This document shows positions 1 to 10,330 of a stretch of DNA of 10,330 nucleotides, piece after piece. The stretch is from the IMG/VR virus record IMGVR_UViG_2541047849_000005, positions 1-10,330 of that record. One strand, 5' to 3'. Origin of the DNA: a virus (taxonomy: Duplodnaviria; Heunggongvirae; Uroviricota; Caudoviricetes). The notes under the pieces are model-generated. The model was not told where the DNA came from and made no database searches. It saw nothing but the letters and a program-made list of their open reading frames with translations. Position 1 is the first letter of the stretch, and each line of letters starts with the position of its first letter. Made by a program: the position numbers and the translations under genes.

Positions 1-861
1 ATGAGATTCAGCACCCCATTACGGTATCCTGGTGGTAAAGGTAAATTAACTAACTATCTATCAAAGATCATTATGATCAATGGCTTAGATGGTTGCGAAT
101 ATGTTGAGCCGTATGCTGGTGGTGCTGGAGTAGCCATTAATTTACTTTTGTCTGGGAAAGCATCACGTATACATTTAAACGATCTTAATAACGCCATTTT
201 TTGTTTTTGGCGGTCGATTCTAGAAGAAACTGATCAGTTTTGCCAATTAATTGAAAAAACTCCTGTGAATATGGATGAATGGTATAAGAATAAAAATATC
301 ATTAGTAATCAATGTGATTATTCCTCATTGGAAGTTGGATTCGCTACGTTTTTCCTTAATCGAACAAATCGGTCAGGAATTTTGTTAGGTGGTGTAATTG
401 GTGGTAAGGAACAAAATGGAAAATGGAAAATAGATGCTCGATTTAATAAGGTTGATTTAGTAAACCGTATTAAGGTAATAGCAGACCGTAAATCTGATAT
501 TTGTATCTATAACCAAGATGCTAAATCATTCTTGCAAAATACTGTAACTGGATTCCCATTAAAAACATTGCTTTATCTTGACCCTCCATATTATGTTAAA
601 GGAAAGGGCTTGTATCAAAACCATTATAGTCATGATGATCATGTCGAAATTGCTAATATTATAAAATCTAATTCAAAGCATCCATGGATTGTATCTTACG
701 ATAATACTGTTGAAATAAACAACATGTACACTGGTCTTAGAAAAATTGAGTACGGTATCAGCTATAGTGCTCAATCTAGGTACCAAGGGCCAGAAGTAAT
801 CTTTTTTTGTGATAGCATTTCTATTCCTGATGATATGGATCCTACAAGAGTCAAATTATAG
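1..861 (+). CDS. Dam-family (D12 class) N6-adenine DNA methyltransferase, 286 aa
   Basis: N-terminal AdoMet-binding region YPGGKGKL...VEPYAGGAGV (aa 9-44), FFLNRTNRSG block, catalytic DPPY at aa 194-197 (nt 580-591). Colinear with E. coli Dam motif order (WAGGK / VEPFVGAGS / LYLNRYGYNG / CDPPY) as recalled. Visibly AT-rich compared with the neighbouring int. ATG at nt 1, TAG at 859-861. Confidence 0.85.
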   Translation: MRFSTPLRYPGGKGKLTNYLSKIIMINGLDGCEYVEPYAGGAGVAINLLLSGKASRIHLNDLNNAIFCFWRSILEETDQFCQLIEKTPVNMDEWYKNKNIISNQCDYSSLEVGFATFFLNRTNRSGILLGGVIGGKEQNGKWKIDARFNKVDLVNRIKVIADRKSDICIYNQDAKSFLQNTVTGFPLKTLLYLDPPYYVKGKGLYQNHYSHDDHVEIANIIKSNSKHPWIVSYDNTVEINNMYTGLRKIEYGISYSAQSRYQGPEVIFFCDSISIPDDMDPTRVKL

Positions 862-1981
862 CTATTTTACTCCAATCTTTCCCTCGGTCATCATGGTAGC
901 GATCTGTTTGCTGCTGGGTTTTATGGCCCAGTAGCTTTCTAGTATCGATCCCCTGTTCTTTGTACAGGCGTTCAGATAAAGACCTTTGTTCATGGAATGT
1001 TGCGGGTGAGCCATCACCCCAGTCAATTCCTGCTAAATCCCTCGCTTTACTGAAATTCATCGTCAATGTATTGGCTTTTACTTGCGCGCCACGTTCAGCC
1101 TGTGAAGTAGTACGAAAAAAATGTACAAGGTATGGGCTGACTGCATAGTCACGACAGCGGGCTACTACATTGCGTAAACTCCAGTTAATCGCATTGAGGC
1201 GAAGAGAAAGAGGAATTGCGATTTTGCTTCCAGTCTTTTCCTGTACGACATGAAGATGATCATCCCAAATATCGCTAAATTTCATACGCGAGATATCACC
1301 TAACCGCTGGCCAGTAACCAGTGCTAACAGCATGGCATTCCCCATATAACGATGACTGGCATCTGCGATTTCAAAGATTTTTTGCCATTCTTCAAGACTT
1401 AACCGTTGTCGGGTAATTTTTCTTCTGGGCTGTTTGGTGGCTAATGCCGGGTTATAGCCCGGGGGGACTTCTCCGTAGTGTTGCGCCTCCTTGAATACAT
1501 CAATCAGGACGGAACGAACTACTTGCGCCATTCTCGGCTGTCCGACGGCGATATACTCGTCAAGCAACTGGGCTATATCCCTGACATCAACGGCTGAAAT
1601 TAACTTCAGTCCTGCTCGTTCCCTGAGCAAGGATACTGGTTTGGCTTTCTGTTTATAGGTATTGAGCTTTATATCGCCACTTTTCAGTCTGTCATCCTGG
1701 ATTGCTTGATAGCGATCTAACCAGGTTGACGTTGTGATTGCTTTTCCTTTGCTGGTTGCGATTCTGTCACTGATAGCCAGAATCTGCCGGGTTCTTTGCT
1801 CAGCCAGGCGTGTATTGGCCTCAGTGGCAATAGCAATGGCTTCAGCTTCGTTTGTGCCCAAAGAATGAAACTTCCCGGTCACTGGATGCTTATATCGCCA
1901 ATAAACTTTATTTACTTTTCTGCTATAGAGTGGATACAAGTTCGGGACTGAAACATTATTTTTACGTGGTCTGGCTGCCAT
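851..1981 (-). CDS. int: Lambda-family tyrosine integrase (site-specific recombinase), 376 aa
   Basis: N-terminal arm-binding-type region (PNLY...YWRYKHPVTGK), catalytic-domain blocks LALVTGQRLGDISRMKFSDI and C-terminal HEQRSLSERLY...LLGHKTQQQTDRYHDDRGKDW closely parallel lambda Int (HELRSLSARLY...LLGHKSDTMASQYRDDRGREW), with the catalytic Tyr in DRYHDDRG. Stop TGA on the complement of 851-853. Confidence 0.92.
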   Translation of the reverse strand: MAARPRKNNVSVPNLYPLYSRKVNKVYWRYKHPVTGKFHSLGTNEAEAIAIATEANTRLAEQRTRQILAISDRIATSKGKAITTSTWLDRYQAIQDDRLKSGDIKLNTYKQKAKPVSLLRERAGLKLISAVDVRDIAQLLDEYIAVGQPRMAQVVRSVLIDVFKEAQHYGEVPPGYNPALATKQPRRKITRQRLSLEEWQKIFEIADASHRYMGNAMLLALVTGQRLGDISRMKFSDIWDDHLHVVQEKTGSKIAIPLSLRLNAINWSLRNVVARCRDYAVSPYLVHFFRTTSQAERGAQVKANTLTMNFSKARDLAGIDWGDGSPATFHEQRSLSERLYKEQGIDTRKLLGHKTQQQTDRYHDDRGKDWSKIAII

Positions 1982-2207
1982 TACTTAAAATCCTTTGTAG
2001 AATAATAGAATCATTTTTCTTGATGACAGGAGTAACTAATTCCCCAACTAACTCTGCGTCCTCACGTACTCGCCATAGTCGACCTTGTTTCATTGCCGGT
2101 GGACAAAATAAATTCTGCTTAGCATAACGACGCAATGTGGACACACTTGGAGGATTACTCCTAAATTTTTCCGCAGCCCATTCCTCAAGTGTCAGCATTT
2201 GAAGCAT
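1962..2207 (-). CDS. xis: Excisionase (Xis, lambda-like), about 81 aa
   Basis: Small basic protein MLTLEEWAAEKFRSNPPSVSTLRRYAKQNLFCPPAMKQGRLWRV resembling lambda Xis (MYLTLQEWNARQRRPRSLETVRRWVRECRIFPPPVKDGREYLF). Its 3' end overlaps the int start by 20 nt, as in lambda. Start chosen at the second in-frame ATG (2207), which has a GAGG about 9 nt upstream; the ORF-track start at 2222 is an alternative. Confidence 0.75.
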   Translation of the reverse strand: MLQMLTLEEWAAEKFRSNPPSVSTLRRYAKQNLFCPPAMKQGRLWRVREDAELVGELVTPVIKKNDSIILQRILSNGSQTT

Positions 2208-2250
2208 TTTTGATAACCTCATTTCTTTTGCTACAAAACTATTTCACTAG

Positions 2251-2799
2251 TTAATTTCGCTGTCTGGATTGTTTATGTATCTTATGCAGCTCTTTAAAGC
2301 GTTCCATAAACATCCCGTAGGCATGGCCCGGTGCCAGTGGAATCACTTTGAACATCTCTGTTGCCGGGATACCTTCCAGTACAGACCAGAAAGAGCCATC
2401 ATCAAGCCCGAGATCGCGGCGTTCGGTTGCCAGCATGATGAGATCGGCATATTTCACAGGCGTGCTCATAACCGGGGGTAACCCGTATTTCTCACGGATT
2501 ACGGCGTCTATTTTTTCTTCCATCCGTTTATAGTCAGGAAGAAGGCGTTTCAGTGGCGCGGGGATGTCCTGACAATAAGCTTCTGTTGCATCATGCATTA
2601 ACGCTTCAAAAGCAAATTCCTGCGGTACCAGCTGGCTGCAAAGCACCGCATGTTGGGCGACGCTGTAGAAGTGTGAAAGATGTCCTGCAAAGCGACAGAT
2701 ATTTGAAAGGGAAACCGCGATATCGTTAATAACGATGTCGTCTTTATTTATCCTGTCATAATAAAAATGCTTCCCAGAAAAAGTTTTAATAAATGACAT
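2251..2799 (-). CDS. yfdR: HD-domain phosphohydrolase, YfdR-like (prophage 5'-deoxynucleotidase family), about 182 aa
   Basis: HD-domain metal-ligand pattern: H in FAGHLSHF, HD in ALMHDATEAY, downstream D in ATERRDLG. Start placed at the internal ATG (2799) preceded by GGAGAA; the 21-codon upstream extension to 2862 has no RBS. Position between xis and a YfdQ-like gene matches the K-12 CPS-53 yfdQ-yfdR order as recalled. Confidence 0.7.
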   Translation of the reverse strand: MSFIKTFSGKHFYYDRINKDDIVINDIAVSLSNICRFAGHLSHFYSVAQHAVLCSQLVPQEFAFEALMHDATEAYCQDIPAPLKRLLPDYKRMEEKIDAVIREKYGLPPVMSTPVKYADLIMLATERRDLGLDDGSFWSVLEGIPATEMFKVIPLAPGHAYGMFMERFKELHKIHKQSRQRN

Positions 2800-2893
2800 T
2801 TTGTTCTCCACGTTATTTGCGCTGCACCGCACAGAATTCTGGTAAAAGGAAGCCCTCACCATCCGGCGATTATTGAGTTAATTACGTTTCCAT

Positions 2894-2915
2894 AAATGCC
2901 CCCGCAGGGGCATTT
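2894..2915. other. Perfect 9-bp stem / 4-nt loop hairpin (AAATGCCCC-CGCA-GGGGCATTT) in the intergenic gap between the YfdQ-like and YfdR-like genes
   Basis: Inverted repeat read directly from the sequence. There is no clean U-tract after the stem on the minus (transcribed) strand, so it is more likely an RNA-processing, stability or attenuation element than a strong terminator. Confidence 0.35.
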
Positions 2916-2927
2916 GCAGTAATGAAA

Positions 2928-3752
2928 TCAGGCGGTGAAAGTACCAATAAAGGTTTCTACTTTGCTGTCTTTGAATTTCTCAACAAGCAGATCACGAAAT
3001 TCGTTAGCCATTTCTTCCTGCACCGCTTCCAGCTGAATAATGCGCAGAACCAGTACAGGACGATCGCCAGTGATAATGCTGAGGCGTAATTTAAATGAAC
3101 GTTCTTTCAGGCCTTCAAACGGAACGCATTTAAATTCAAATGCCACTGGCATAATGTCTTTGGTCTTCGCTTCGACAGACTCCATCAGGGAGCGTTTGCC
3201 GCTGAAGTCATTATCTTCAAAATCAGCGGTCTGGTTCGCTTCAATTGTGATTTTACGGATAGCTGCCGCCGCTTTGGTTGCCTGAATGGCGTCACCATTA
3301 GCATCAAAGCCCACAAGGTAGTCGGCCCAGTCTTCAATCCATTCTGCCAGTGATTTCTGGGAGTTACGCTCGCCATTAACAGACAACAGAGCAGAGAACG
3401 GTGCTGTCTTTTTCAGTTTGAGAGTGGCGGTGTTATCTGCGTGACCTGGTTCATCAATAGTACCCAGGTTAAGCACACTGACGGCACGCATATTATCAGC
3501 ATCGATAAAGCAGCGGGTGCCTTCATCTGCAAGATCTTTAGAATAACGGGTAAAGTCATCGATGCTGGCAGTGGAAAGCGCACCACGGAAACGGAAGCGA
3601 TTTAAATTAAATTTTTCCAGATCATGAATGCGGAAATTCTCAGGCAATGCCACAGCATCGGCACCAATCTTACTGATAATTTCATTAACACCCTGAGCAG
3701 AAATAAGGGCATGGATTTGATTAATTGCGGTTGCGTCTAAGTTCTGAGACAT
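2928..3752 (-). CDS. Phage early protein, YfdQ-like (DUF2303-type), 274 aa
   Basis: Long ORF with a GAGGA RBS 7-11 nt upstream of the ATG. Size (274 aa) and position immediately upstream of the HD-domain gene match prophage yfdQ as recalled. Family name is tentative; no catalytic motif recognised. Confidence 0.65.
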
Positions 3753-3817
3753 AATAAGTCCTCACTATATAAAGATATTCAGTGATGAGATAAATAATCA
3801 GTTAATTAATAACGATA

Positions 3818-4180
3818 TTAATGGCCTGCTGCGCGGAGTTTTCCGTCAGGTTCACCGGCAAGAGTCAGTAATTGTCCCTGGTCTTCCTGCAGAATAGTCA
3901 GGCGACCACCGCGATTGACATACATCGGCGTTTCGGTGGTGTCTTCTTCGGAAATTTTCCCGCGGTTAGTCGGGCGAACATATGAGAGTTTGTGTTTGAT
4001 TTTCACACGGTTCTCATCAAATGGTTCGATTTCCAGGTTGAGTGAGACCTTACCTTTGGTTTTCGTGTTCATCACACCGGAAGCGACTTCACTGAGAACT
4101 GCGCCGATTTTGGTTTCAAATACGCCGCCGTCCAGCTCCCCGATAAATGCCTGCACATCAGTACTGCGTTCGCTAGCCAT
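3818..4180 (-). CDS. Hypothetical phage early protein, 120 aa (positional equivalent of yfdP)
   Basis: ATG at complement 4178-4180 preceded by GAGGAG (ATGATGAGGAGCAGCAAAATG). Sequence beginning MASERSTDVQAFIGELDGGVFETKIG has normal composition. The ORF-track extension up to 4498 is Arg/Cys-rich and implausible. Confidence 0.65.
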   Translation of the reverse strand: MASERSTDVQAFIGELDGGVFETKIGAVLSEVASGVMNTKTKGKVSLNLEIEPFDENRVKIKHKLSYVRPTNRGKISEEDTTETPMYVNRGGRLTILQEDQGQLLTLAGEPDGKLRAAGH

Positions 4181-4324
4181 TTTGCTGCTCCTCATCATAT
4201 CGACCCTGCAAGGCCGATTAGTTTCTCCACAAAACAGAGAAGAACACCTGCGGTGGCAGCCGCCCGGATGGATTGGGTTATGAGCCCGTCGTCCGGTGAT
4301 GCTCTTCTCTGTTTTGTAAAAAGG

Positions 4325-4411
4325 ACGGTACCAGCCGGAAGCAAGGGTACAAACTGGTACCGCCAGGACTACACACAGCATAAAGTTGTGGTGCCGGGTG
4401 CCTCCCGGTGC
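4325..4411. repeat. Cluster of six GGT(A/G)CC motifs: 9-bp inverted repeat CGGTACCAG(4325-4333)/CTGGTACCG(4353-4361) plus three direct GGTGCC copies (4389-4394, 4396-4401, 4406-4411)
   Basis: Read directly from the sequence. Lies in a GC-rich non-coding island between divergently oriented gene blocks; could be operator or recombination-site remnants. Confidence 0.4.
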
Positions 4412-4617
4412 CTGGCGAAGGTTGCACACCAGACGGGTGGGTATCCACAGAAGGTCGACTGTCAGCCTCAACCTTAACCCGCGTGCGCTGAGCCGCATTC
4501 ACCACAACGCTAAGGATTCTCTCTGGTTGAAAATACTTAGCTGTTATGTGCCTGTCTTTTCACCACTTCAGGCTCGGTGGTATCCTTTTAAGCCCGTATA
4601 CATAAAAGGAAAATCAA

Positions 4618-4767
4618 ATGACTTTTGATGAAAAAGAACTTGATAATGCAATTAATAAAATCATCGTAACGTCGCTCTTTTCCTGTCTCAGCGACACTCA
4701 GCAGAAACAGTTCTACGAATCGGCTTTCAACATGATCGAGCGTTGTTGTTTCTGCGATGCCGACTAG
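4618..4767 (+). CDS. Small ORF, 49 aa (MTFDEKELDNAINKIIVTSLFSCLSDTQQKQFYESAFNMIERCCFCDAD), hypothetical; possibly the N-terminal stump of a deleted gene
   Basis: ATG at 4618 preceded by AAAGGAAAA 7-8 nt upstream; stop TAG at 4765-4767. Not in the supplied ORF track, presumably below its length cut-off. Overlaps the 5' end of the tape-measure reading frame in another frame. Confidence 0.3.
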   Translation: MTFDEKELDNAINKIIVTSLFSCLSDTQQKQFYESAFNMIERCCFCDAD

Positions 4768-6302
4768 TTACAACGGCTGATTTTCAGAACATGATGCAGA
4801 TGCTGGTGCGTCAGGGGATCCCGGCAGAAAACATTCTTGGCGGTGTGGGTAAAGCGACAGCTTATCTTGCGGTACAACTGAAAAAAACACCGGAAGCGGC
4901 TGCCGAGTTTGCCGCAAAGATGCAGGATGCTACCGGAACGGCGTCAGAAGACATGATGGGGCTGTTCGACACTATCCAGAAGGCGTTTTATCTGGGCGTT
5001 GACGATACCAACATGTTGTCCTTCTTCACTAAAACCAGTTCTGTTCTGAAGATGGTGAACAAGGACGGTCTTCAGGCTGCACAGAGCCTTGCCCCCATCA
5101 GCGTCATGATGGATCAGATGGGGATGAACGGGGAGTCGGCAGGTAATGCCCTGCGAAAAGTTATCCAGTCCGGATTAAGCGTTAAGAAAATCAGGGACGT
5201 CAATAAAATCATGGCCCGCCAGAAACTCGGGGTACAGCTCGATTTTACTGATGGCAAAGGGAGTTTTGGCGGTCTTGATAACATGTTCAGGCAACTGGCA
5301 AAGCTGCGAAAACTGACCGACGTTAAGCGAACCGGTGTACTTAAGGCAATATTTGGTGATGATGCCGAAACCCTTCAGGTGGTCAATGCTCTGATCGATA
5401 AAGGAAAGAATGGTTACGATCAGATCCAGCAGAAGATGCATAAACAGGCCAGCCTGAATAAACGTGTTCAGGCCCAGCTTGGTACGCTGTCCAACCTGTG
5501 GGAGGCAATGACGGGGACCGCAACTAACGGCCTTGCGGCTATTGGTGGCGCATTTTCTGGTGACGCCAAAAATATCACGCAATGGCTGGGGGAGTTAGGG
5601 GAAAAATTCACGAAGTTTGCGGATGAAAATCCCCGGGTTATTCGCGGCGTCGTCGGGCTTGCTGCCGGTCTTGCGATTCTGAAACTGGGATTGATGGGCG
5701 TGGGCAGTGCCATCAGTATCGTCAGCAGGATCATGTCGATGACGCCGATTGGCATGATTGCGACGGCGATTGCCCTGGCTGCGGGATTAATTATCACTAA
5801 CTGGGATGTTGTCGGACCTTATTTTAAGAAACTCTGGGAAACCATTAGTCCTTATTTTGAGGCTGGCTGGGAACTTCTGAAGAAGGTTTTTGCCTGGTCG
5901 CCGCTGGGGATGGTGATCAATAACTGGGGACCGGTTGTTAAGTGGTTTCAGGATATGTGGGATAAGCTGAAGCCGATTATTGAATGGTTTACCGACAGTT
6001 CCGGTGACACGGTCGATGCCATTAACTCGGCGCAGTGGGGCGCGGGTGCTTATGATGCTTATGAGACGGGAATACCGCCACGGGGATACACTCCTTATCC
6101 GGAGGTGGATCCGGCTCAGGCAAACAACGCCTCCGGTGCCACAGGCTCGAATCCCTTCATGATTAATAAAGTTACCGCGCCAAAAGTTGATGGTGAGATC
6201 AAGGTATCATTTATAAATATGCCACCAGGTATGCGGGTTACGGAAACACGCTCCAGTGGCATTGATATAAATCACGATGTTGGCTATACCCGATTTTGGT
6301 AG
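4743..6302 (+). CDS. Phage tail tape measure protein, C-terminal portion (probably a 5'-truncated remnant; pseudogene candidate)
   Basis: Internal hydrophobic stretch (VIRGVVGLAAGLAILKLGLMGVGSAISIV...IGMIATAIALAAGLIIT) followed by a Trp-periodic region (W every 9-11 residues, about nt 5797-5990), both typical of tape measure proteins. The frame is open from 4659, with a TTG at 4743 and the first ATG at 4791, and no convincing RBS. At about 519 aa it is shorter than the usual 700-900 aa, and the upstream sheath/tube/chaperone genes are absent. Confidence 0.7.
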   Translation: MLFLRCRLVTTADFQNMMQMLVRQGIPAENILGGVGKATAYLAVQLKKTPEAAAEFAAKMQDATGTASEDMMGLFDTIQKAFYLGVDDTNMLSFFTKTSSVLKMVNKDGLQAAQSLAPISVMMDQMGMNGESAGNALRKVIQSGLSVKKIRDVNKIMARQKLGVQLDFTDGKGSFGGLDNMFRQLAKLRKLTDVKRTGVLKAIFGDDAETLQVVNALIDKGKNGYDQIQQKMHKQASLNKRVQAQLGTLSNLWEAMTGTATNGLAAIGGAFSGDAKNITQWLGELGEKFTKFADENPRVIRGVVGLAAGLAILKLGLMGVGSAISIVSRIMSMTPIGMIATAIALAAGLIITNWDVVGPYFKKLWETISPYFEAGWELLKKVFAWSPLGMVINNWGPVVKWFQDMWDKLKPIIEWFTDSSGDTVDAINSAQWGAGAYDAYETGIPPRGYTPYPEVDPAQANNASGATGSNPFMINKVTAPKVDGEIKVSFINMPPGMRVTETRSSGIDINHDVGYTRFW

Positions 6303-6330
6303 CCAGGATTCCCCTCACAGGTATTGCTGG

Positions 6331-6358
6331 TTGTAAGTCATAAATAGAGTGATAGAAT
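6331..6358 (+). promoter_or_regulatory. Candidate sigma70 promoter with extended -10 for the moron gene (-35 TTGTAA 6331-6336; 16-nt spacer; TGaTAGAAT with hexamer at 6353-6358)
   Basis: Motifs read from the sequence; about 35 nt upstream of the 6394 start codon. Not experimentally supported. Confidence 0.4.
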
Positions 6359-6393
6359 TAATGCACATTTAGAAAAATGTTAATAGGCGAAAA

Positions 6394-6924
6394 ATGAAAG
6401 GCTATATCACAGCAAGTGTAATTCTTGGAGCAGCGGCTATTTTTTCATCTCTCATAATCTCTGGCAACATCTCCTTTAAAGATGAACATATTATTCAGTT
6501 ATCTGGAGGAGCCATAAAACTTGGTGATGTTTATAAAGAAAATAAATTGATAAGTGCAAAGATTATTTTTCCAGATAATCAGGGTGAACAGATTCTTGTT
6601 GTCGACGGCAATCCTGAAAACTTTAAGGAGGATTTTCAGGGGAAATTAAATAAAGTAATAAAAACTTTAAATGCGTCAAAGAAAAAAGATGAAGAGAAAG
6701 TTAGCCTGGATAATTTAAGTGTTATTGAAGAGTCTAAACTAGAGCTCGTTTCTGCGGTGCGTTACTCTGCTCAGTATGTTCCTATGTTTACTCTGACGCT
6801 GGACAAAAAAGAAATTACCATGCCTAAAAATACGGTAATATTTCCATTTGCCAGCGATGAAACAGCTAAGTATTTAAATGAACAACAGCAAAAGTATAAA
6901 GATTCGTTGTTTCTGACTCGCTAA
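6394..6924 (+). CDS. Moron-encoded membrane-anchored protein of unknown function, 176 aa (single N-terminal hydrophobic span, Lys/Glu-rich C-terminal domain)
   Basis: Clean ORF in an AT-rich insert. N-terminus MKGYITASVILGAAAIFSSLIISG is an approximately 20-residue hydrophobic signal-anchor; no cysteine, so not a lipoprotein. Flanked by its own promoter candidate and an intrinsic terminator. No family recognised. Confidence 0.8.
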   Translation: MKGYITASVILGAAAIFSSLIISGNISFKDEHIIQLSGGAIKLGDVYKENKLISAKIIFPDNQGEQILVVDGNPENFKEDFQGKLNKVIKTLNASKKKDEEKVSLDNLSVIEESKLELVSAVRYSAQYVPMFTLTLDKKEITMPKNTVIFPFASDETAKYLNEQQQKYKDSLFLTR

Positions 6925-6941
6925 TTAATAAAATTCATTAC

Positions 6942-6975
6942 AAGGCCACCTTCTAATAGGTGGCTTTTTAATTTT
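6942..6975 (+). terminator. Rho-independent terminator (stem GCCACCT 6945-6951 / AGGTGGC 6958-6964, loop TCTAAT, then TTTTTAATTTT)
   Basis: GC-rich 7-bp stem followed directly by a T-run, 18 nt after the moron stop codon and just before the next gene's RBS. Confidence 0.75.
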
Positions 6976-6985
6976 CGGAGTATAT

Positions 6986-8404
6986 ATGACGTGGAAAGAC
7001 AGGCTTCAGGATGCGTCATTTCGAGGTGTGCCGTTTAAGGTTGAAGAAGAAAGTGCGGGAACTGGCCGTCGTGTGGAAACGCACGAATACCCGAACCGCG
7101 ACAAACCCTATACCGAAGACCTGGGGAAAATTACTTTCCGCCCGTCCATCACGGCTTATGTGGTGGGAGATGACTGCTTTGACCAGCGCGATCGCCTGAT
7201 TGACGCGCTGAATAAACCCGGTCCCGGCACGCTTGTCCATCCGACTTACGGTGAGCTGAAAGTCTGTGTTGACGGAGAAGTTCGGGTCAGCACATCGAAG
7301 AGTGAAGGACGTATTGTCCGCTTTGACCTGAAGTTTGTCGAAGCAGGAGAACTCTCTTACCCCACATCAGGTGCGGCGACGGCGCAGGCGCTGATGTCAT
7401 CCTGTTCTGCACTGGATGACTGCATCAGTAACAGCTTCAGCGGTTTTAGTATCGATGGCGTGGCGGATTTTGTGCAGAACGACGTCGTCGGTAATGCCAG
7501 CACAATGCTTGGGTATGTTTCTGATGCGATGAAAGTGGTGGATTCTGCCGTATCGGATGCCGCCAGGCTGTTGCAGGGGGATATCTCGGTACTTCTGCCG
7601 CCGCCATCGTCAGGCAAAAATTTCGTTGAGCAGGTGCAGAAAATGTGGCGTACCGGGAAACGCCTTTATGGTAACGCCAGCGACCTGGTCACCATGATCA
7701 AAACGCTTTCTGGTGTCAGCCTCGGCAGCGATTTGCAACCGCGCGGCGTCTGGAAAATGGACAGTAAAACCACCGCCACAGCGACGCAGCAGCGTAACAT
7801 GGTTGCCAGCACCCTTCGTACGACTGCAATCAGCGAAGCGGCGTATGCCGTTACCCGATTGCCTGCGCCAACAACTTCTGCGGTGATGCAGAATGCCGCA
7901 GTGGGGCAGTCAACAACACCCGCGCAGAGCTCCGGCTGGCCTGCCGTCACGCATCCGGTGCTGAACAATGCACCGGCGGTGAAAAACACGGTTGACCTGC
8001 CAACGTGGGAAGAACTGACCGACATTCGCGACACACTGAATATGGCAATTGATAAGGAGTTGTCCCGTACAACCAGTGATGCGCTGTTTCTGGCGCTGCG
8101 CCGGGTGAAAGCAGATCTGAATGCGGATACCTGGCCTGCGGTACAGAATGACCGTTACGGCTCCCGACTGTGGCTGCTTCAGCGCAGCAAACTGACCAAT
8201 CAGCTGGTGCAGACGGTAAGGGGGTATATCCGCGAATGCCTGCAATGGATGATTGATGATGGCGTGGTGTCCCGTATTGATCTGGATATCCGCCGCACCG
8301 GGATTAATGAACTGGGTAACAGTATCACTCTCTGGCGTCGTGACGGACCGGTAATGATTTCTTTTGATGATCTGTGGAGTGCGATAACGCATGGCGGACA
8401 GTGA
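6986..8404 (+). CDS. Mu-type DNA circulation protein (gpN/gp43-like) tail component, 472 aa
   Basis: N-terminus MTWKDRLQDASFRGVPFKVEEESAGTGRRVETHEYPNRDKPYTEDLG carries the hallmark SFRGVPF...GRR..HEYP.RD block of the DNA-circulation N-terminal domain. GGAG RBS 5 nt upstream of the ATG at 6986. Confidence 0.85.
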   Translation: MTWKDRLQDASFRGVPFKVEEESAGTGRRVETHEYPNRDKPYTEDLGKITFRPSITAYVVGDDCFDQRDRLIDALNKPGPGTLVHPTYGELKVCVDGEVRVSTSKSEGRIVRFDLKFVEAGELSYPTSGAATAQALMSSCSALDDCISNSFSGFSIDGVADFVQNDVVGNASTMLGYVSDAMKVVDSAVSDAARLLQGDISVLLPPPSSGKNFVEQVQKMWRTGKRLYGNASDLVTMIKTLSGVSLGSDLQPRGVWKMDSKTTATATQQRNMVASTLRTTAISEAAYAVTRLPAPTTSAVMQNAAVGQSTTPAQSSGWPAVTHPVLNNAPAVKNTVDLPTWEELTDIRDTLNMAIDKELSRTTSDALFLALRRVKADLNADTWPAVQNDRYGSRLWLLQRSKLTNQLVQTVRGYIRECLQWMIDDGVVSRIDLDIRRTGINELGNSITLWRRDGPVMISFDDLWSAITHGGQ

Positions 8405-9449
8405 ATTTCAGCGCCCGACGCTGGCAGAAAATATCAGTATGCTCCGTAACGATTTATTCGCCAGGCTGGACGTCAGCGACACGCTCCGGCGCATGGATGA
8501 AGACGTGCGGGCAAAGGTGTATGCGGCGGCGCTGCATACGGTTTACGGTTACATCGATTATCTGGCAATGAACATGCTGCCTGACCTGTGCGATGAGTCC
8601 TGGCTGGCGCGACATGCTGCGATGAAACGGTGTCCGCGCAAGGGGGCCACGGCTGCCAGCGGGTATATGCGCTGGGAAGGTGTCAGCGATGGCCTGAAGG
8701 TGACTGCCGGGAGCGTGATTCAGCGCGATGACCTGGTTCAGTACACGGCAACTGCTGATGCAACCAGCTCCGGTGGTGTCCTGCGCGTGCCGATCACTTG
8801 CTCAAGTGCAGGCGCGGTCGGTAACGCTGACGACGGTACGGCATTAATCCTGGTCACGCCGGTGAATGGTCTGCCGTCTTCCGGTGTTGCAGATACTCTG
8901 ACTGGCGGATTCGATACTGAAGATCTGGAAACGTGGCGCGCCCGCGTCATTGAGCGGTATTACTGGACGCCGCAGGGCGGGGCTGACGGGGACTATGTCG
9001 TCTGGGCTAAAGAAGTGCCCGGCATTACCCGCGCATGGACATACCGTCACTGGATGGGAACGGGAACTGTCGGTGTGATGATTGCCAGCAGTGACCTGAT
9101 TAATCCCATTCCGGAAGAATCAACGGAAACGGCGGCAAGACAACATATCGGGCCACTGGCCCCGGTGGCAGGCTCTGATTTGTATGTGTTCAGGCCGGTG
9201 GCACATACGGTGGATTTTCATATCCGCGTGACGCCGGACACACCGGAAATACGGGCTGCCATCACCGCGGAGTTGCGTTCGTTCCTGCTGCGTGATGGTT
9301 ATCCGCAGGGAGAACTGAAGGTATCGCGTATCAGTGAGGCGATTTCCGGTGCGAACGGGGAATACAGCCATCAGTTGCTTACACCGGCAGACAATATCTC
9401 CATTGCAAAAAATGAACTGGCGGTACTGGGGACGATTTCATGGACGTGA
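8391..9449 (+). CDS. Baseplate J-like protein (Mu gp47 / P2 gpJ / e14 JayE family), 352 aa
   Basis: Size, position before a gp48/YmfQ-like gene and the tail fibre, and overall similarity to baseplate-J proteins as recalled. Start overlaps the upstream stop by 14 nt (translational coupling). Confidence 0.7.
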
Positions 9450-10024
9450 CAAACGATGATTACATCCGTCTGTTGTCGGCACTGTTGCCCCCCGGTCCGG
9501 CGTGGTCAGCCAGCGATCCGTCGATTGCCGGTGCGGCACCGTCATTAACCCGCGTTCATCAGCGTGCGGATGCCCTGATGCGGGAGCTGGATCCGCGCAC
9601 CACCACTGAACTGATAAACCGCTGGGAGCGTCTGTGCGGTCTGCCGGATGAATGTATTCCCGCAGGGACACAGACCCTTCGCCAGCGTCAGCAACGGCTG
9701 GATGCGAAGGTTAACCTGGCGGGCGGCATCAACGAGGATTTTTACCTTGCACAGCTTGCTGCCCTGGGCAGACCAGACGCTACCATCACGCGATACGACA
9801 AAAGCACGTTCACCTGCTCATCGGCCTGTACTGACGCTGTGAACGCGCCTGAATGGCGGTATTACTGGCAGGTCAACATGCCAGCCACCACCAACACCAC
9901 TTGGATGACATGTGGCGATCCCTGTGATTCCGCGCTGCGCTTCTGGGGGGACACCGTTGTCGAGTGTGTTCTTAACAAACTCTGCCCGTCGCATACCTAT
10001 GTGATTTTTAAATATCCGGAGTAA
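9440..10024 (+). CDS. Phage tail protein, Mu gp48 / YmfQ-like (DUF2313-type), 194 aa
   Basis: Length identical to e14 YmfQ as recalled; located between the baseplate-J-like and tail-fibre genes; overlaps the upstream gene by 10 nt. Confidence 0.7.
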
Positions 10025-10027
10025 TCC

Positions 10028-10330
10028 ATGCATCGTATAGACACGAAAACCGCGCAGAAGGATAAGTTCGGCGCGGGTAAGAACGGTTTTACCCGTGGTA
10101 ACCCCCAGACCGGCACGCCTGCCACCGATCTGGATGATGACTACTTTGACATGTTGCAGGAGGAGCTTTGCAGCGTTGTGGAGGCATCCGGTGCCAGCCT
10201 GGAGAAGGGGCGGCATGACCAGCTGCTTACCGCGCTTCGTGCGCTGCTGTTAAGCCGCAAGAATCCGTTTGGCGATATCAAATCGGATGGCACGGTGAAA
10301 ACAGCTCTCGAAAACCTTGGTTTGGGAGAA
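10028..10330 (+). CDS. Side tail fibre protein, N-terminal part (partial; continues beyond the window)
   Basis: N-terminus [47 protein letters not shown] is the conserved baseplate-attachment N-terminus seen in Mu-type/e14-type tail fibres, as recalled. GGAG 7 nt upstream of the ATG at 10028. No stop codon before the window end. Confidence 0.75.

Follow-up and report, generated by a model that had tools for sequence, protein, structure and literature searches.

A cryptic prophage of the e14/SfV family at icd in Escherichia coli that has very probably lost about 21.3 kb at a single join

SfV, together with SfI and SfII, belongs to a set of functional temperate myoviruses of Shigella flexneri, and the relationship among SfV, SfI and the e14 element of E. 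coli K-12 is described in PMC3636060. The SfV genome is complete (37,074 bp) and resides at thrW, whereas the element described here resides at icd. The K-12 e14 element occupies icd as well, where it duplicates a 3' fragment of that gene, and has undergone large internal deletions with overlaps of 3-4 bp, at the oweE-aaaE (3 bp) and beeE-jayE (4 bp) junctions. A second K-12 element, CPS-53 (KpLE1), is a deletion-riddled lambdoid remnant with yfdP, yfdQ and yfdR; it is integrated at argW and carries an integrase different from that of our element, with which it has in common the yfdP/yfdQ/yfdR family names and its general state of decay.

The window analyzed here, a whole stretch of 10,330 nucleotides, very probably represents the left two-thirds of a cryptic e14/SfV-family prophage in E. 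coli from which ~21.3 kb was lost in one join and a further 1,959 bp in a second deletion. The element is carried by an E. coli strain with a draft assembly (GCA_000459575.1) and is inserted at the 3' end of icd. In the numbering of the source scaffold (L005), icd occupies positions 1-1068 and the duplicated icd fragment (icd') at the far end positions 18706-18870, with an internal repeat between 904-1122 and the icd' region. The icd/icd' pair is normal, and the chromosomal flanks match the e14 locus of K-12 at 95-96% identity. The integration genes form an intE/xisE-type module, 88.6% identical to K-12 intE-xisE at the DNA level over 1,364 bp and 98.4% identical to the copy in strain GF31, where PGAP names the genes intE and xisE. 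The tail and baseplate genes are of the Mu-type, SfV-like kind: scaffold positions 11677-13347 are 96.3% identical to K-12 jayE-ymfQ-stfP, and the Pfam domains Baseplate_J and Phage_Mu_Gp48 are called in this region. The early genes of the element are lambdoid, and its tail is Mu-like. The coordinates of its features are collected in Table 1.

Table 1. Features of the window (positions are those of the window; strand is left empty for breakpoints).
Feature	Position	Strand	Evidence
D12-class DNA adenine methylase, cargo	1..861	+	PF02086 E = 8.7e-18; PADLOC PD-Lambda-5_B E = 1.9e-121, full length
Tyrosine integrase, intE type, intact, 376 aa	851..1981	-	Pfam Arm-DNA-bind_1 and Phage_integrase; intE in GF31 annotation
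Excisionase, xisE type, 81 aa	1962..2207	-	PF07825 Exc; xisE in GF31 and AHB3 annotation
yfdR homologue (5'-deoxynucleotidase), early-left, 182 aa	2251..2799	-	yfdR in GF31 and AHB3 annotation
yfdQ homologue (DUF2303), early-left	2928..3752	-	PF10065; counterpart of SfV orf31
yfdP homologue (SfV orf32), last intact minus-strand early gene	3818..4180	-	PF27127 YfdP; phrog_204 E = 1.2e-49
Frameshifted ymfH-like pseudogene	~4194..4505	-	tblastn with K-12 YmfH: two pieces in different frames, E = 6e-29
49-aa ORF, good ribosome-binding site	4618..4767	+	phrog_3311 E = 2.9e-32, profile positions 1-49 of 81
Deletion 1 breakpoint, TAC common to both parental flanks	4769..4771		Overlapping blastn pieces; three-way flank comparison
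5'-truncated tape measure gene, codons 101-610 of 610	4770..6302	+	PF10145; AHB3 alignment
176-aa gene inserted between tape measure and DNA-circulation genes	6394..6924	+	phrog_5485 E = 1.7e-107
DNA-circulation/GP46 in-frame fusion ORF, 472 aa	6986..8404	+	PF07157 residues 7-93; PF07409 residues 381-455 (profile 29-100)
Deletion 2 breakpoint, GGATA, 5-bp microhomology	8125..8129		Mapping against AHB3; same breakpoints against SfV
Baseplate J/gp47 gene, full length	8391..9449	+	PF04865, PF26078, PF26079; length same in AHB3 and SfV
ymfQ / Mu gp48-like baseplate gene	9440..10024	+	PF10076; ymfQ in relatives' annotation
Tail-fibre gene, 5' part	10028..10330	+	Gene call L005 13043-13347 entering N run L005 13348-15682; window end = L005 13345

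The preliminary description had placed the element by analogy with e14, and the resemblance goes further than analogy, extending to the same icd site and the same type of integration module. The two elements also have in common a ymfH homologue, baseplate genes of the jayE/ymfQ type and defence-type cargo at both ends. They differ in what decay has spared. K-12 e14 retains the ymfK repressor, cro, ymfL/M and fragments of replication, terminase and portal genes, all of which our element has lost, whereas our element keeps 510 codons of a tape measure gene that is wholly absent from e14 and, unlike e14, also keeps yfdR/Q/P, a DNA-circulation/GP46 fusion and a baseplate J gene of full length. The two elements also carry different cargo, which consists of lit, ymfD/E and mcrA in e14; in our element, a PD-Lambda-5_B-like methylase and an AAA ATPase are found at the left end and a GmrSD-type type IV restriction enzyme at the right end. 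The methylase gene, which has a low GC content (33.8%), lies between the icd-proximal end of the element and int, with the ATPase gene immediately upstream, beyond the window edge.

Gene order in the window is that of SfV. Window positions 2290-4771 match SfV at 98.1% over orf30-orf32 and the sequence upstream of orf32, and positions 4769-6296, 6976-8129 and 8125-10330 match SfV orf14-orf21 at 95.7-96.8%; compared with the SfV map, two stretches of ~21.9 kb and 1.96 kb are missing from the window, its integrase is a different one, and its tape measure gene is followed by the additional gene of 176 aa. The best proxy for the ancestor is an intact-looking icd prophage of strain AHB3 (NZ_OZ547164.1), which occupies the same locus and contains both the 49-aa ORF and the 176-aa gene; it differs from the window in having full modules (~40 kb), other integrase-proximal cargo and an integrase only 87-92% identical. 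The 176-aa gene (GC content 34.5%, which is low) is also found in USMARC-49610 and is missing from the two Shigella phages compared, as window positions 6297-6958 are unmatched in SfI and 6297-6975 in SfV. Neither Pfam nor PADLOC gave a match for the 49-aa or the 176-aa ORF.

From icd to icd', the scaffold gap excepted, we found no repressor, replication, Q, lysis, terminase, portal, capsid, sheath, tube, hub or spike genes, all of which are present in the AHB3 prophage. The element has thus lost its modules for lytic growth and virion assembly, as is characteristic of a cryptic (defective) prophage. At the right end of the window, the tail-fibre gene is cut by a run of Ns and not by a deletion.

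Alignment to SfV, SfI and the AHB3 prophage resolves the large internal loss, which had been suspected from the sequence of the window, to a single breakpoint. The preliminary description spread the junction over positions 4181-4790; the deletion is borne out but its extent is not, as the breakpoint lies at the TAC of Table 1 and positions 4181-4768 are native DNA, colinear with intact phages. On the left, window positions 3800-4771 correspond to SfV 24236-25207 at 99.5% identity, and the top complete E. coli genomes match over the same interval at 99.6-99.7%, their matches ending there. On the right, positions 4769-5400 correspond to the SfI/SfII tape measure gene from nucleotide 300. In the numbering of the AHB3 locus (L004), window 865-4771 maps to 4680-8585, window 4769-8129 to 29884-33244 (99.94% over 3361 bases, with the tape measure gene again entered at nucleotide 300) and window 8125-10330 to 35199-37404; the last 600 bases to the left of the junction are 100% identical to AHB3. 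The missing DNA amounts to 21,301 bp relative to AHB3 and ~21.9 kb relative to circularised SfV.

The left end of this deletion falls 1-4 nt past the stop codon of the small plus-strand ORF, a site that in the intact phage belongs to a 13-nt spacer separating this ORF from a convergent orf33-like gene. The right end falls at nucleotide 300 of the tape measure gene, and the two ends have only TAC in common. Relative to AHB3, the interval lost comprises the orf33-like gene, a cI-like repressor, cro, replication genes, Q, and the lysis, terminase, portal, capsid, sheath, tube and tail assembly protein genes, as well as tape measure codons 1-100. In agreement with this, the repressor, replication, lysis, capsid, sheath and tube genes noted at the outset as missing between the two modules were not called there. 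It had also been stated that the minus-strand early genes end at 4180; this is correct for the last intact gene (yfdP), and beyond it a frameshifted ymfH homologue continues on the same strand. The colinear segment is annotated as "hypothetical protein, frameshifted" in GF31, AHB3 and USMARC-49610, and the pseudogene is native phage DNA, unconnected with the junction.

The 49-aa ORF does have the good ribosome-binding site first ascribed to it (AAGGA, 7-8 nt before the ATG), and the deletion did not create it, because the identical ORF, TAG stop included, is present in the intact AHB3 prophage (WP_021547453.1). Relative to its phage family, whose profile spans 81 positions, this copy is shortened, and the shortening is older than the deletion; SfV has GAG at the site of this TAG. 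We considered whether it might be a fragment of the 144-aa plus-strand protein that GF31 carries in the same slot, and rejected this, the sequences being unrelated. The window matches GF31 only up to position 4580, and the slot is mosaic.

The ORF downstream of the junction is the C-terminal part of a tape measure protein, as first proposed. Its match to PF10145 (E = 3.6e-25, profile positions 15-201 of 201) scores 89.5 bits against a cut-off of 33.2; phrog_17727 and phrog_28, both "tail length tape measure protein", match as well. Compared with full-length homologues of 610-611 aa, residues 1-100 are missing, and the remainder is identical at 509 of 510 positions to residues 101-610 of the 610-aa AHB3 protein. 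The early observations on its start also hold: the frame is open only from 4659, following a TAA at 4656-4658, and no Shine-Dalgarno-like motif precedes the in-frame TTG at 4743 or the ATGs at 4791 and 4794. The gene has neither a start of its own nor the upstream tail assembly, tube and sheath genes that accompany a full-length tape measure gene. Because it lacks its own start signal, and because a tail would be impossible without sheath, tube and hub, the remnant is most likely a pseudogene. A promoter and terminator scan of window positions 3700-5200 returned counts not above those in shuffled sequence and therefore gives no evidence on expression.

The second deletion removed 1,959 bp between copies of GGATA, taking the 3' end of the DNA-circulation gene, the Mu P-like baseplate hub gene, the gp45/V gene and the 5' part of GP46. 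Its product joins DNA-circulation residues ~1-381 in frame to the C-terminal part of GP46.

To look for the same architecture elsewhere, we used a 1.6-kb junction-spanning query (window 3800-5400) against 5,426 complete E. coli genomes and 50,697 phage records, and no place in either set covered at least 80% of it; there is thus no sign that the arrangement is conserved in functional phages. An exact 25-nt junction pattern gave zero matches in GTDB species representatives, JGI metagenome contigs and IMG/VR. The GTDB representatives, searched with two patterns, include a single E. coli genome, so that this null result says little.

Both joins probably arose by RecA-independent illegitimate recombination at microhomology, through replication slippage or through breakage and end-joining. 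An ancestor nearly identical to the AHB3 prophage lost ~21.3 kb at TAC, and a second loss of 1,959 bp at the 5-bp GGATA overlap removed the baseplate hub and spike genes; outside these 3- and 5-bp overlaps, the flanks show only scattered identities. For random breakpoint pairs in the AHB3 prophage, the chance of an overlap of at least 3 bp is P = 0.054 and of at least 5 bp P = 0.0056, so that the overlap at junction 1 is by itself only marginally above chance and it is the pattern seen over several junctions that supports the microhomology mechanism. In the five junctions measured in icd prophage relatives and the window, overlaps range from 3 to 8 bp, the GF31 junction (KilA-N to baseplate J) having 8 bp; a further junction in USMARC-49610 joins an antiterminator gene to the tape measure gene. 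RecA-dependent recombination between repeats would call for a repeat of tens of bases, and only the 3-bp and 5-bp overlaps are present. Nor does an adjacent deletion mediated by an insertion sequence fit, as one flank switches directly to the other with no extra bases and no transposase is called in the window. The true ancestor was presumably a mosaic relative, because the integrase-proximal region of AHB3 differs (87-92% identity over window 865-1764).

Several successive nested deletions, the last erasing the scars of the earlier ones, would leave the same junction as one 21.3-kb event. Multi-step decay is normal in this family, because our element (with its separate second deletion), K-12 e14 (with two) and USMARC-49610 (with at least two) each carry multiple deletions. 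However, only one junction is visible in 4181-4790, the close match of both flanks to a single intact prophage (100% and 99.94%) allows little time for a long series of events, and a single event is more parsimonious; we therefore consider nested deletions rather unlikely. We regard as quite improbable an illegitimate join between co-resident SfV-like prophages, for example at icd and thrW, or between a remnant and an infecting phage. SfV-family prophages do occur at both sites in E. coli, many genomes have several matching places (up to 7), and the window combines a GF31-type int region with an AHB3-type tail region. Yet the junction is matched on either side almost perfectly by one and the same AHB3 prophage, with orientation and order kept, and an exchange between distant loci would have left the chromosome rearranged, whereas the icd/icd' pair and its flanks are normal.

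Two further proposals give the remnant a function. In the first, the tape measure remnant and the ORFs behind it would now be constitutively expressed behind the small ORF with its strong ribosome-binding site, the deletion having also removed a stem-loop that follows this ORF in intact phages, and one product would have been co-opted; the downstream ORFs encode a membrane-anchored protein of 176 aa, the DNA-circulation/GP46 fusion, baseplate J and gp48. Were this true, the hydrophobic C-terminal tape measure part or the 176-aa protein could, for example, interfere with DNA injection by incoming SfV-like phages; we judge it highly improbable. In the second, the whole arrangement would be a selected one, a satellite or a domesticated tail-derived device expressing its shortened tape measure by coupling to the 49-aa ORF. 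The stop codon of this ORF lies 24 nt before an in-frame ATG of the tape measure remnant, the stem-loop that comes after it in intact phages (CCTGA-AAAAA-TCAGG) was lost with the deletion, and the downstream ORFs are intact, one of them as an in-frame fusion. Against this stand the missing sheath, tube, hub and spike genes, the lack of the junction in the 5,426 complete genomes, the phage collection and three further collections, and the many different junctions of relatives, with no single conserved one; near-identity to an intact prophage indicates that ORF integrity reflects recency and not selection, and we find the proposal scarcely credible. An R-type tailocin or similar contractile device was likewise rejected, as sheath, tube and hub fall inside the deleted intervals and are not called at the locus. 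Equally hard to credit is an error of assembly or scaffolding: the sequence comes from a draft scaffold with a 2,335-N gap that starts two bases past the window end, but no Ns occur at or near the junction, its flanks have only 3 bp in common and hence no repeat to mislead an assembler, and the Logan assembly of a separate run, ERR4578576, contains it at 100% identity over 7,057 bp in a contig recorded for 6 samples, which excludes assembly error and is not proof of wide distribution, as the run may come from the same or a clonally related strain.

Under the favoured reading of two simple deletions, the first would have taken the repressor and the adjoining operator region (the expected site of the early promoters) along with replication, Q, lysis, packaging, head, sheath and tube genes. 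As a consequence, the element would be able neither to form particles nor to kill its host, and would stay as a passive passenger. The event appears to have been recent, with 2 mismatches in 3,361 bp relative to AHB3 on the right side, which would explain why the remaining ORFs look intact. Excision may still occur, because int, xis and both icd repeats survive, and the defence-type cargo at both ends may account for the retention of the remnant.

The deletion scar is an ordinary one, the decay of the element is routine for prophages, and the finding bears on correct annotation and on little else. Two ORFs, the "tape measure" one of 503-519 aa and the DNA-circulation/GP46 one of 472 aa, need a flag as pseudogenes or products of deletion, and the appropriate label for the element is cryptic prophage of the e14 family. 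Together with K-12 e14, GF31 and USMARC-49610, it makes up a small set of deletion alleles that arose independently within a single prophage family. With a near-identical intact reference at hand, this set can be used to study the manner and pace in which prophages decay while the defence cargo at their ends stays in place.

A 1.6-kb breakpoint query (window 3800-5400) was searched against phage records and 5,426 complete E. coli genomes. Query bases 1-972 matched 24236-25207 of the Shigella flexneri phage SfV at 99.5% identity (99.6-99.7% in the best complete E. coli genomes), and bases 970-1601 matched the tape measure genes of phages SfI and SfII, beginning 300 nt into the gene. This clean split places the breakpoint, junction 1, at 4769-4771. 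The preliminary description had put a probable deletion junction at 4181-4790; a deletion join does lie within that span, but it is a single point; the rest (4181-4768) is native to the phage and runs colinear with intact phages. Neither the phage records nor the 5,426 complete genomes contained a match covering at least 80% of the query, and the same architecture conserved intact, which would speak against a deletion, was found in neither set.

The icd prophage of E. coli AHB3 (NZ_OZ547164.1; about 40 kb) looks intact, with every module present, and the window aligns to it in three colinear pieces (see table). The 600 bp directly left of junction 1 are 100% identical to AHB3. Measured against AHB3, deletion 1 removed 21,301 bp, in support of the large internal deletion originally proposed; arithmetic from the alignments gives about 21.9 kb against circularised SfV, with identical breakpoints. 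The lost DNA comprises the orf33-like gene, the LexA-family repressor ymfK, ymfT (cro) and ymfL; replication and nin-type genes, Q, holin and endolysin; both terminase subunits, portal, protease, capsid and connector genes; and sheath, tube, tail assembly protein and tape measure codons 1-100.

Features flanking the two deletion junctions and aligned pieces of the window
Feature	Window	Strand	AHB3 prophage locus	Basis or detail
Piece 1	865-4771		4680-8585	96.4% identity
Piece 2	4769-8129		29884-33244	99.94% identity, 2 mismatches
Piece 3	8125-10330		35199-37404	98.6% identity
yfdP	3818-4180	minus		ORF map and sequence
ymfH homologue, frameshifted	about 4194-4505	minus		comparison with K-12 ymfH
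49-aa ORF	4618-4767	plus		AAGGA 7-8 nt upstream of ATG
In-frame fusion, DNA-circulation protein N-terminus and GP46 C-terminal part	6986-8404			472 aa

The gene layout first described around the junction holds: the ORF map confirms the strand and limit of yfdP, and the 49-aa ORF does have a good ribosome-binding site. A TAA at 4656-4658 leaves the plus-strand tape measure frame open only from 4659, as had been noted, and no Shine-Dalgarno-like motif precedes its candidate starts, TTG 4743 and ATG 4791/4794. That the frame is the C-terminal portion of a tape measure protein is borne out by PF10145 (E = 3.6e-25, aligned from profile position 15 of 201 onward), by several PHROG families labelled 'tail length tape measure protein' and by alignment to the 610-aa AHB3 protein, of which residues 101-610 are kept (509/510 identical) and residues 1-100 are gone. 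The 503-aa product of the truncated gene was likewise predicted on a contig of the Logan assembly of run ERR4578576; the remnant is probably a pseudogene.

The 49-aa ORF, TAG included, has an identical copy in intact AHB3 (annotated WP_021547453.1) and matches positions 1-49 of the 81 in phrog_3311, and SfV has GAG at the position of the stop; the ORF is therefore a nonsense-shortened copy, shortened before the deletion. Like the ymfH pseudogene, it is ancestral. The ymfH-region segment is annotated as frameshifted in AHB3, in GF31 and in USMARC-49610, and SfV has colinear DNA there without an annotated gene. On the intact phage map, the left breakpoint lies within the 13-nt spacer that separates the 49-aa ORF from the convergent orf33-like gene, where a small CCTGA-AAAAA-TCAGG stem-loop, lost in deletion 1, has its base. 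The longer plus-strand phrog_3311 frame of SfV would run over orf33, which is annotated on the minus strand, and one of the two may therefore be a misreading. Window 4581-4768, compared with 7579-8350 of the GF31 locus, is a mosaic slot lying between the ymfH-like region and the repressor; it is that of the phrog_3311 and orf33-like pair in the window, AHB3 and SfV, and holds an unrelated 144-aa 'ECs1072 family' gene in GF31 and USMARC-49610.

At junction 2 (8125-8129), 1,959 bp are missing across a 5-bp overlap, GGATA. The missing length is a multiple of three and the joined genes lie in one frame; the product is an in-frame fusion, with PF07157 at residues 7-93 and PF07409 at residues 381-455. 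This deletion also took out the Mu P-like baseplate hub gene and gp45/V.

At each join one parental flank gives way straight to the other, the overlaps being 3 and 5 bp. Microhomology, which the preliminary description had suggested seeking, was present at junction 1, where the flanks have in common only TAC, or G-TAC counting one mismatch. For random breakpoint pairs within the AHB3 prophage, the chance of an overlap of at least 3 bp is 0.054, and of at least 5 bp 0.0056. Both deletions probably arose by RecA-independent illegitimate recombination at microhomology, through replication slippage or break repair, either of which would fit the sequence. Flank comparison revealed no IS element, long repeat or filler bases at either join, and we rejected repeat-mediated and IS-mediated deletion for lack of the repeat or element that each invokes. 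Mapped on the AHB3 reference, relatives have comparable scars elsewhere: K-12 e14 has them at oweE-aaaE (3-bp overlap, about 9.5 kb lost) and beeE-jayE (4-bp, about 13.3 kb), and GF31 has one at KilA-N-baseplate J (8-bp, about 21.8 kb). The thrW prophage of USMARC-49610 has an antiterminator-tape measure junction, annotated as partial genes, and a second junction, HTH-KilA-N. The scars in these three elements are independent deletion junctions.

Junction 1 recurs in the Logan contig, 7,057 bp of which are 100% identical to the window, and so is not an assembly error. Its exact pattern had no match in GTDB species representatives, JGI metagenome contigs or IMG/VR; it is a rare, lineage-restricted allele. 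An exact-protein look-up assigns the window to scaffold KE701198.1 of the E. coli draft assembly GCA_000459575.1. The source locus there is the e14 locus, with the gene order icd, AAA ATPase, methylase, int, xis, yfdR, yfdQ, yfdP, 49-aa ORF, tape measure remnant, 176-aa gene, fusion, baseplate J, gp48, tail-fibre start, a 2,335-N gap, resolvase fragment, GmrSD-type gene, icd fragment and an iraM-type gene (Pfam PmrD) whose flank matches K-12 iraM-ymgL. Identity to K-12 is 95-96% in the flanks, 88.6% across int-xis and 96.3% across jayE-ymfQ. The gap (13348-15682 of the source locus, L005) starts 2 bases past the window end, in the tail-fibre/invertible-segment region, so this assembly does not show the element's right part, with the tail fibre, tfa and pin genes; the 59-residue resolvase ORF called just past the gap may be incomplete because of it and not truly truncated.

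In K-12 e14 the icd-int slot is occupied by ymfD, ymfE and lit; here it holds an ATPase (AAA_15/AAA_21; L005 1237-2946, outside the window), with best PADLOC matches to HEC-04, AriA and PtuA-type ATPases, and a D12 adenine methylase (window 1-861, 33.8% GC; PADLOC PD-Lambda-5_B, full length, E = 1.9e-121), whose 3' end shares 11 nt (851-861) with the convergent integrase gene. At the element's right end, a GmrSD-type type IV methyl-directed restriction enzyme (L005 15990-17879; PADLOC mREase_IV, full length) occupies the position of mcrA in K-12 e14, so that both ends of e14-family elements seem to serve as slots for interchangeable defence genes. A 176-aa gene (6394-6924, 34.5% GC) separates the tape measure and DNA-circulation genes; its product has a hydrophobic N-terminus and matches phrog_5485. 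The AHB3 and USMARC-49610 prophages have this gene and SfV and SfI lack it, which gives it the look of a moron in the tail operon.

The element failed the tests for both a functional phage and a tailocin, and induction, replication, lysis and assembly would be impossible. The remaining ORFs probably look intact because the event is recent (99.94% identity to an intact prophage) and not through selection. Excision may still be possible, with int, xis and the two icd repeats undamaged, although deletion 1 also took the repressor and the adjoining operator region, where the early promoters should lie.

The initial observation is confirmed and its interpretation supported, with refinements: one breakpoint, the ancestral status of the 49-aa ORF and ymfH pseudogene, a second deletion and the e14 site. 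The element had been called analogous to e14; it is a cryptic prophage of that kind, but the relationship is closer than analogy, as it occupies the e14 site itself. It has the icd site, int/xis type and Mu-like baseplate genes that define the family, and differs from K-12 e14 in its surviving modules and cargo genes. The element is a new deletion allele of the well-known e14 family of cryptic prophages, whose relationship to SfV and SfI has been described (PMC3636060).
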